A stretch of 64,000 nucleotides of DNA, taken from NCBI GenBank assembly GCA_964016885.1, contig OZ024745.1, positions 127,596,001 through 127,660,000 of the forward strand, in the 5' to 3' direction. Below the pieces are notes generated by a model. The model was not told the DNA's origin. It made no database searches and worked only from the letters and a program-made list of their open reading frames with translations. Made by a program: the position numbers and the translations under genes. Origin of the DNA: Eledone cirrhosa (taxonomy: Eukaryota). The stretch's first letter is position 1. The number at the start of each line of letters is the position of its first letter. Positions 54,471 through 58,099 of the stretch are shown in pieces.

Positions 54471-55127
54471 TATTCTTAAAATCTATATTATTTTGTAAAA
54501 ATCTAATTAGTATGTACTAATTATCTGAAATAAGAAAAAAAAAATGCAATTAATTTTAAAGTTAACTACCTTCTAATGACTTCGTTGTGACTGTTTGTTG
54601 CAGATTTGAACTGAAAATATTGATGTACAAGACTAAATACTATTTCATACAATATAGTTCTTGGACTTCCTACTTTCATCTAGGTCGATCAGTGGTGCTG
54701 GTCTGTGCCTTATGTAGGTGTGTCTCTTTATGTGTGTGTGCGTGTGTATGTGTGTGTGTGTGTGTGTGTGTGTGTGTGTGTGTGTGTGTGTGTGTGTGTG
54801 TGTGTCGAGTTTTAAATTTGGGGTTCATTAAAGAGTGTGCGTTATGAGTATATATATATATATATATATATATATATATATATATATATATATATATACA
54901 CACACTCATATACATGTATATTAATATATACATAGGGGAGGGTCATATTTGCGTAATATTGCCAGAATTAATAACAGAACACACTCACTGTTTGGTTGGT
55001 TTTCGTTTTTCGCTTCTGTGTCTTTTATATCGGTTAATTTAATTTATTCGGTCCTCAATGTTGCCATTGACTGACCAACGGTAAAAAATACAGATACAAT
55101 ATAGACACAAACACATATATATAGTTT

Positions 55128-55169
55128 ATCAAAGTTCTTTCGTTGCACATCTGCAACATCGTCAGTGGT
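55128..55169 (-). ncRNA. Type I HHR (family B, left arm)
   Basis: Mirror of 56031-56072. Confidence 0.7.
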
Positions 55170-56030
55170 GCTATTGTTTCCTCCCGTTGCATTGTATTTT
55201 CTACGCCATCTTTATTTAGTCTGTTTATATATTTATTTATTTGTTGTTTTTTTTTGTCTTCTTTGCGCATGCGTTTGCGTGTGTGTATAGTGTTTTGTTT
55301 GATGTGTGTTCGTGATTGGGTGACTATGTATTGGTTAATGTATTCTATCTTTACTAGTGTGTGTTTATATGTGTTTGTTGTTATTGTGCTTGTGTATGTA
55401 TTTATTTATTTATCTATTTATTTATTTATTTATACTTCTCTTAGGTCAGTGTTGTTTGTTTGGGTGTTGTTCTTATTCCATTCATTTTTTCTGTTTAGCC
55501 TTGGCTTTCTAAGCTCTATTTCACTGGCCTCTCTGATTTGCCTATCTGCTGGGTCATTTCTATGTTTAGATATTATTCTAATTTTTATGTTGACAACATA
55601 GACAACATAGAAATTAGAATAATATCTAAACATAGAAATGACCCAGCAGATAGGCAAATCAGAGAGGCCAGTGAAATAGAACTTAGAAGGCCAAGGCTAA
55701 CAGAAAAAATGAATGGAATAACAACACCCAAACAAACAACACTGACCTAAGAGAAGTATAAATAAATAAATAAATAAATAGATAAATAAATAAATAATTA
55801 CATACACAAGCACAATAACAACAAACACATATAAACACACACTAGTAAAGATAGAATACATTAACCAATACACAGTCACCCAATCACGAACACACATCAA
55901 ACAAAACACTATACACACACGCAAACGAATGCGCAAAGAAGACAAAAAAAACCCAACAAATAAATAAATATATAAACAGACTAAATAAAGATGGCGTAGA
56001 AAATACAATGCAACGGGAGGAAACAATAGC

Positions 56031-56072
56031 ACCACTGACGATGTTGCAGATGTGCAACGAAAGAACTTTGAT
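56031..56072 (+). ncRNA. Type I HHR (family B, right arm)
   Basis: acca-CTGACGA-t-gttgca(gatg)tgcaac-GAAA-gaac-TT-tgat; stem II covaries with 449-491; stem I has one mismatch. Confidence 0.7.
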
Positions 56073-58099
56073 AAACTATATATATGTGTTTGTGTCTATA
56101 TTGTATCTGTATTTTTTACCGTTGGTCAGTCAATGGCAACATTGAGGACCGAATAAATTAAATTAACCGATATAAAAGACACAGAAGCGAAAAACGAAAA
56201 CCAACCAAACAGTGAGTGTGTTCTGTTATTAATTCTGGCAATATTACACAAATATGACCCTCTCCAAGTATAACAATATTTGTTTCGACACACGATTTCA
56301 TATCAAAAACCTCGCAAAACTAATATATACATATATATATATATATATATATATATATATATATATATATATATATATATATATATATATATATATATAT
56401 ATATATATATATATATATATATATATATATATATATATATATATATATATATACATATATATATATATATATATATATGAATATATAAATATATATATAT
56501 ATATAAAGAGAAAAAGTGGGAGAGAGTTTTGAATAAAGAAAGCAAGACGGAGTATAGCGATTGTGTGCGTATGTATGTAGGTAACTAAATAAATAAATAA
56601 ATAAATAAATAAATAAATAAATAAATAGCCAGATAAGTATGTAGTTAACAAGCTGGGTTTATAAATACAAGAAGAAAGGGCACATATAGAACTAGAGAGA
56701 GAAAGAGAGGGCATAGAACGGGATAGAGAGAGAAAGTGGGAGAGAAAAAAAAGAGAGAGATAGATAGATAGAGAGAGAGAGAGAGAGAGAGAGAGAGAGA
56801 GAGAGAGAGAGAGAGAGAGAGAGGGGGGGGGGGATTATCATAAATATATAATGAATAAAGTGTTTTTCTCTTCTTACCGGAGAACGCCCAAACTATTGAA
56901 AAGTGCTGATCTGGAATTCCTAGCACCTGTTAGCATTTTATAGGTTGTTTTTAAGTGCACCGCACTGTATAGTGAATATCGCTTCCTTCCTTACATTATC
57001 CCGCTAATAAAATAGGTTTCTTTTCTCTAGGACCTAAAATGCGTTCTGGAGGAGACGTGGGTAGTCATAATTTTTCATGATTACAAATAAAAGGTGCTAC
57101 AGGTGAAAGTGAAGTCAATGGACATCAATAGAGGAGCAAAACTAGGTAACGGATGATGAATGATGATCAGGAATATTTTTGCATGATCATAGACGATCAC
57201 TACCGCCAAGATGTCGCTCGACCTGTTAGATAGAAATAACATTAAAATCTCTCTCAGATCCTTCACTGCTGTCTTAAACAGGAAATGTATATTATTTTCC
57301 CAGCTGGGTCTATAAGAAAGTACCGGTAATATTTTAGATTGGTTAAGGTGGTGACTTTGAAAATAATTTAAGCGACAAAGAAAATGCATTGCAGTATTTA
57401 GTTATGTTCCTTTATGTTTTAGTTAAAATATCGATGTATGTCAAGAAAATTATAGCGTTCTAGTGAGTCTAGTGAATCTTGGGTTTATGTCAGAAATCAT
57501 TGATAATGAGGTATTGTGAACTGGATTGGAAATACCAAGAACAGGTTTCTCTTGATCAATGTTTCCAAGTACCCTTTGAGACAGGTGGTGAAATTGGAGA
57601 GGAAATAAGACTGCACATTTTATAGAAAATAGATATAGGTGTCGGTCATTACTTTGATAACGAAGATAAACCTATCAGTTTCGACTGGACATTGAACCAG
57701 AGTGATCAAGTTTTATATAATATCTCAAATTGAACGAAGCCTCTAACCACTTCCTGTTTATCACTTTTAAGATGTAGCTAGCTTCCGGCACTACTACAGC
57801 CGTCATTTACAATCAAGTATAACTTGATACTATGTACAATTCTTTAGGTGTCCATGCAGTCACGAGCAGACACACACCCTTACTCAGCCCTTCCTCATTC
57901 AATCCATCGAAACATCTAATATATGACAGCCAGAAGGATAATTGACTATAACTTACTTTATCGATCCCGAAAGGATGAAAAGTATAGGAAACCTCGGCAA
58001 GATTTGAATGCAGAATTCAGGGACTCGAAAAAACTCTCTAACTACTCTGCCAAATAAGACCAGCCAAACCTGTCGGCACTCTTCTTCTTCTTCTTCTGG

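Follow-up and report, generated by a model that had tools for sequence, protein, structure and literature searches.

Structure of the palindromic locus

The window, that is, the whole stretch of 64,000 nucleotides of Eledone cirrhosa DNA analysed here, contains an inverted repeat with a total length of about 1.4 kb (54935-56322). Its arms, at 54935-55592 and 55603-56265, are separated by a spacer of 10 nt (55593-55602) and differ by eight substitutions and five indels, two of the five indels lying within an (ATAA)n run. A near-perfect palindrome with ~660-bp arms, a 10-nt spacer and some ten inter-arm differences had been described in the original prediction from the sequence alone, and it is present in the assembly as described. 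The mirror symmetry ends at the ends of the element, and the unique flanks are not mirrored. The locus is a doubly 5'-truncated, head-to-head copy of a young, high-copy Penelope-like element, here called family E, and the prediction that two Penelope 3' ends meet head to head here, each arm with an endonuclease tail and a hammerhead motif, was confirmed.

The left flank (54849-54934) consists of a (TA)n microsatellite and degenerate TA-rich sequence; this is likely to be the insertion target, and no target-site duplication could be read there. The left arm (54935-55592, minus strand) comprises the endonuclease tail, the 3' UTR, a hammerhead motif (55128-55169, minus strand) and the ATG (54946-54944). 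Its outer end is degenerate and falls at the short end of family E or ~14 nt before it, with the tail absent. The right arm (55595-56279, plus strand) is a 5'-truncated copy as well, which extends to the short-end position; its ORF start lies at 56254, and its hammerhead (56031-56072, plus strand), identical to the left-arm motif, has a predicted cut after 56068. A tail of 43 nt that extends the first codons of the ORF (56280-56322, plus strand) was found on the right arm only, and is followed by the (TA)n microsatellite of the right flank (56323-56500).

The last 53 codons of the element ORF, covering the C-terminal third of the GIY-YIG domain, are located at 55433-55591 (minus strand), in a stop-free frame without a start codon and without the GIY and YIG motifs. 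An endonuclease C-terminus reading outward from the centre had been anticipated, and it does so in both arms, the left frame being open for its 53 codons to the stop and the right one carrying a 1-nt deletion near 55698. Neither this central peptide nor a 165-aa endonuclease piece had a match in Pfam, the kind of profile search proposed for checking it, yet 48 of its 53 residues match the C-terminal end of the intact ORF described below, which bears out its reading as a GIY-YIG tail.

At the 5'-to-5' junction, the spacer is native element sequence from 55595 on. The 5' ends of the arms are 8-10 nt apart, and a small hairpin at the centre lies inside a native 9-nt near-repeat. The tandem GACAACATA x2, which had been placed within the loop, does exist, at 55592-55609; only half of it falls inside the spacer, and most of it belongs to the native element. 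The 25 nt across the junction are found at a single place in the 3.0-Gb genome. The two arms differ from each other at 9 of 659 positions, whereas among 69 other copies the best match to them differs by 1.6% and the median by 3.0%. Most of the inter-arm differences are private mutations, and the arms have one rare variant in common. Taken by itself, this locus is an unremarkable transposon scar, and the palindromic copy encodes nothing; its architecture is already known and repeated, and the locus is not unusual in this respect.

The full-length element of family E

Querying the genome with the palindrome centre returned 24 matches, and a GIY-YIG coding region was seen upstream of several of them. 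A very young subfamily, recognised by a 30-nt diagnostic stretch that has 15 exact matches, led to locus L141 (G000:C10:23147000-23156900), where a complete 4,122-nt unit comes after a 5'-truncated copy in a partial tandem; the repeat extends over 2,641 nt at 100% identity with a period of 4,122. The full-length element called for by the original prediction was recovered in this way, with an ORF of 1,208 aa (L141:4831-8454) that starts from the ATG opening the terminus. Eight other loci are 99.6-100% identical to L141. Since the overlap is also perfect, the L141 subfamily is likely to be still active. Searches with the RT region and the 3' end returned 1,144-2,599 first-look candidates, a rough sign of high copy number.

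The ORF consists of a long asparagine-rich stretch, an RT (YVDD), a CX4CxxC linker and a CCHH-type GIY-YIG domain, in that order. On aligning it with 19 of the 120 homologues listed, we found YVDD, the CX4CxxC linker (C357, C362 and C365) and a Cys pair inside the GIY-YIG core to be conserved in all 20 proteins. The CCHH pattern can be read from the ORF as VVYSIRC-x4-C...YIGE followed by two His-bearing segments. Among the homologues listed, the nearest named one is an Octopus vulgaris protein with 68% identity; for O. vulgaris, the available part of PMC13282606 tabulates recent Penelope activity.

Pfam support was weak. No Pfam match was obtained for the full 1,208-aa ORF at E<=0.001; RVT_1 was detected on another copy, L067, with an E value of 4.5e-5, below the curated cut-off, and a PDB sequence search gave one weak RT row (E 0.27). 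For a 490-aa piece from another copy, a structure was predicted with a mean pLDDT of 72, and residues 376-473 of this model best matched the GIY-YIG domain of I-TevI (Z 9.0, rmsd 2.2, 87 residues aligned). Foldseek returned no row at E<=0.001, and an Atlas search gave a cluster at 0.96, 31% of which carries GIY-YIG.

Family E shows the features of an EN+ Penelope-like element, namely an RT followed by a C-terminal GIY-YIG domain of CCHH type, and a partial tandem with pseudo-LTR and tail. It also has the CX2-5CxxC linker before the endonuclease that marks the Neptune/Nematis type. Judged by its sequence, it would be a young Neptune-type Penelope-like retrotransposon, a placement made by linker and domain order. 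As far as the available text of PMC8557442 describes such C-terminal EN+ elements, family E resembles them in its single RT-GIY-YIG ORF, CX2-5CxxC linker and CCHH motif, and equally in its (TA)n targets, partial tandems, inverted 5'-truncated copy at the 5' end and tail at one end. It differs from them in the length of the tail, which is 43-58 nt in family E against 30-40 nt.

The hammerhead motif

The motif in the window has a CUGACGA core, an extra U before a helix II of 6 bp and a helix III of 2 bp; its helix I is weak, with three of four pairs formed. A set of 57 distinct family E and B motifs was picked by a pattern that requires the core; 92% of their cells were paired and three pairs were changed on both sides, these two-sided changes amounting essentially to one contrast between E and B. 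The CUGANGA and GAAA cores, helix II, the NUH site and covariation are all present, and on these sequence features we consider it a putative minimal type I hammerhead. It is comparable to the minimal type I hammerheads of metazoan Penelope-like elements, as given in the available text of PMC4209133, in the unpaired base before a long helix II, in G10.1-C11.1, and in the tiny helix III and short helix I. Unlike those, its loop 3 (AA) is not palindromic. Rfam, whose models are built on canonical forms, reported no hammerhead at the gathering score or at E<=10. The miRNA-precursor rows that Rfam did return were discarded as generic hairpin matches with scores below gathering.

A hammerhead-type motif in each arm had been predicted and is there; the two lie on opposite strands, so that a single transcript holds one ribozyme and its antisense, not two ribozymes. 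The locus offers no cis dimer, which ribozymes of this type presumably require. In the predicted fold of the plus strand, the ribozyme is paired with the antisense arm in a duplex of 666 pairs, in line with the earlier expectation that a read-through transcript would form ~660 bp of dsRNA and bury the ribozyme. Pairs of Schistosoma hammerhead motifs on opposite strands, 100-700 bp apart, are mentioned in the accessible part of PMC4209133.

In the young subfamily, the hammerhead (L141:4600-4650) has an altered helix III region and would pair fully as a dimer, whereas the form in the window has an AA mismatch in this region. The change in helix III of the young subfamily suggests that selection still acts on the ribozyme. 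Unrelated to these motifs, another set of hammerhead-like ones was noticed in AT-rich short elements of the window (9176, 11874, 24781, 25265, 43897 and 48307).

Head-to-head copies across the family

Head-to-head arrangements made up 14 of 28 copies selected by the hammerhead region and 20 of 29 selected by the tail, both samples being the best-scoring copies and not a random draw. Across 117 loci, we counted 49 head-to-head junctions against 4 tail-to-tail. Some are highly regular: L143 is a 3.6-kb palindrome with 99.7% identity, and L032 has identical arms of 800 nt. A rare tail-to-tail inversion within a family E copy was seen at L093:2881-3235.

We examined 43 family E junctions, 13 of which were uncallable. 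In all 30 where both outer ends could be called, one end was short and the other tailed, with the reservation that 16 of these 30 pairs came from the tail-selected search, in which one tail is guaranteed. The callable outer ends nearly all run into TA-rich sequence. Among pairs with arms of unequal length, 9 had the tail on the short arm and 10 on the long one; a tailed short arm cannot have been copied from a long arm in which the tail is missing. A cruder script assigned tails to both ends in two family B pairs.

Junctions close to symmetry were over-represented (6/33 against 1.1 expected, p=0.0004, with the window locus included), and this held in a larger set from which the window was excluded (6/41 against 2.7 expected, p=0.044). 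Paired arms mostly belonged to the same subfamily, differing at 23 of 233 diagnostic sites, as compared with 32-48% for random pairs. At L030, L109 and a second pair in L032, however, the arms carried variants of different subfamilies (checked by eye), which indicates that two templates were used. A diagnostic difference was present in 7 of 13 symmetric and 9 of 19 asymmetric loci (p=1.0), so that template matching was alike in both. An early split, with one template for symmetric and two for asymmetric junctions, was lost in the larger, gap-masked test.

Similar structures are described for Pen2-Pen4 of Adineta vaga in the available text of PMC3846280. Family E shares with these a pLTR that holds the first codons of the ORF, a tail that extends the ORF, head-to-head inverted repeats, palindromic junctions and an asparagine-rich insert in the ORF. 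Unlike Pen2-Pen4, it has thousands of copies and an apparently active subfamily, its Asn-rich stretch lies before the RT, and some of its paired arms come from different subfamilies.

Origin of the palindrome

We propose that the palindrome is a dead head-to-head insertion into (TA)n, which likely arose in one event with both nicked strands acting as primers, and we put the probability of this reading at roughly 0.68. The element protein, probably a dimer, would nick both strands of a TA run. One nicked end would prime cDNA synthesis at a proximal start site, after codon 9, and the other 43-58 nt beyond it, at a distal site. Synthesis of both cDNAs would break off early, in this copy no more than 10 nt apart, and the ends would then be joined. 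On this model the arms would have been near-identical at insertion, and would have gathered their private mutations since. Read-through from either side would transcribe the antisense arm first, and the single sense ribozyme would then be buried in dsRNA.

The biochemistry of Poseidon offers a precedent for several of these steps. According to the available text of PMC11167929, the purified Poseidon protein cleaves and extends both strands and is predicted to be a dimer, and its reverse transcription starts at two sites bounding the tail. Family E resembles the Poseidon element PAc of Anolis carolinensis in having two end positions that bound the tail inside the ORF start, AT-rich targets and a hammerhead in the pLTR. 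Poseidon differs in being without the Cys linker, and the PAc hammerhead overlaps the start codon while that of family E is ~190 nt upstream of it. The same available text holds no link between the two start sites of Poseidon and head-to-head copies. In the openly available text covered here, we found no link of twin priming to head-to-head Penelope copies; the available text of PMC8557442 does describe (TA)n targeting, tails on one side and inverted copies with 5' truncation for Penelope-like elements.

The pairing of short with tailed ends, the arms of mixed subfamily and the Poseidon biochemistry, taken together, favour twin priming followed by joining of the cDNAs. We extend this to head-to-head Penelope insertions in general, with one short and one tailed end, on either arm, and sometimes two RNAs, with less assurance, at slightly better than even odds. 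Counted against twin priming are the tail-selected pairs, the uncallable junctions, the degenerate short end in the window and the two tail/tail calls in family B.

The strongest competitor, which we nevertheless regard as unlikely, starts from the same element and has the second arm made by snap-back self-copying of the first cDNA or of an antisense template, one end being trimmed later by the endonuclease. Self-priming is the published reading for the Adineta Penelopes, where an antisense template has been proposed (PMC3846280, available text). The closeness of the arm 5' ends and the hairpin in the native near-repeat at the centre would fit this mode of copying, as would the observation that the window arms are each other's closest copies and have a rare variant in common. 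The enrichment of near-symmetric junctions also favours it, as independent drop-off of two cDNAs does not predict such enrichment; a single broken RNA copied twice would reconcile twin priming with this result. Fold-back copying, however, needs precise trimming at the short end, calls for extra steps in the nine short arms whose tail is missing from the long arm, and does not produce arms from different subfamilies. Nor does template matching separate symmetric from asymmetric pairs, as the above comparison indicates. The subfamily match between most arms is compatible with both mechanisms.

Twin priming, if true, would explain the inverted pseudo-LTR together with the one-sided tail. The rule by which ends are paired is a testable answer to the origin of the inverted repeats, which the available text of PMC8557442 names as an open question. 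An octopod family with an intact, apparently active master and many clean junctions opens up a direct test of twin priming.

It is very improbable that the locus has been kept as a source of hairpin RNA, supplying dsRNA for siRNA silencing or A-to-I editing of family E. A 666-bp duplex is predicted on the plus strand, and in transgenic Drosophila, inverted Penelope repeats match siRNA-producing regions (PMC3681739, available text). Against such a role, the 13 inter-arm differences are as expected under neutral decay, many palindromes of equal or larger size exist, and no host-gene domain was detected by Pfam in the 96 window ORFs scanned out of 111 candidates. The palindrome may still yield dsRNA as a by-product, and in a cephalopod-type genome many such palindromes together could represent a large potential source of dsRNA.

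Short-read contigs are known to lose hairpins and palindromic words. Positions 55588-55593 were crossed neither by any contig from the three runs searched nor by RAD-seq reads of one further sample, and no record spanned the locus; these data neither support nor exclude the palindrome, and the sequenced runs may come from another individual. A fold-back artefact of assembly or of a read is nonetheless hardly credible. The mirror stops at the element end without entering unique flank, which is evidence against a fold-back read; there is a tail on one arm only, the flanks differ, the arms differ at 13 places, and the same architecture and end rule recur at dozens of loci.

Relation to family B

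The terminus that the original prediction had assigned to family B does run into (TA)n; it is family E's own, and is in fact the ORF start, beginning with the element start codon at 56254. The family B terminus is 83% identical to that of the palindrome over 71 nt, and the hammerhead core is 80% identical over 51 nt. Sixteen of 30 family B loci run upstream into a GIY-YIG coding sequence of their own, with ~70% nucleotide identity to the family E endonuclease and 58% amino-acid identity over 119 residues. The genome holds 2,639 candidates for the family B RT region, and of 30 stretches examined, one of them a re-fetch of two others, 29 include the 3' end of family B. Three distinct loci have RT or RT-EN frames free of stops, which are 942-982 aa long and 66% identical to family E. 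By its sequence, family B can be regarded as an autonomous sister family, whose copies in the window are 5'-truncated.

The proposal that the palindrome is the autonomous partner mobilising family B mini-elements had the common terminus and hammerhead core and the occasional E/B neighbours in the same orientation (L091) in its favour, but it is largely refuted, and any such cross-mobilisation was occasional at most, given that family B possesses an RT-EN ORF of its own, with about 2,600 candidate coding copies, that none of the 49 head-to-head junctions mixes E and B, and that the palindrome itself is non-coding. At L091:1-3581, L008 and L012, pieces of E and B adjoin in the same orientation, through nested insertion or a template switch between sister families. 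A minus-strand family B copy at 4296-4705 of the window stands head to head with an inverted terminus and tail, and is a miniature of the same architecture.

Other repeats in the window

An endonuclease-like remnant at 49956-50309 (minus strand) has a CxCX5C motif and no Pfam match, and similar ORF pieces occur at L031:4175-6320. CxCX5C is the linker form of the Hydra clade of Penelope elements in the available text of PMC8557442. The only Pfam match in the ORF scan was zf-RVT (E 8.5e-5, below the curated cut-off), in a LINE-type remnant at 26926-27618 (plus strand). Further self-inverted stretches, with 72-91% identity, were seen at 25452-26344, 28340-28662, 43837-44102 and 62973-63245. A SINE-like repeat of ~190 nt is present in many copies (24928-25119, 35936-36128, 50563-50756, 63559-63779 and others), and presumably resembles the octopus OK SINE.
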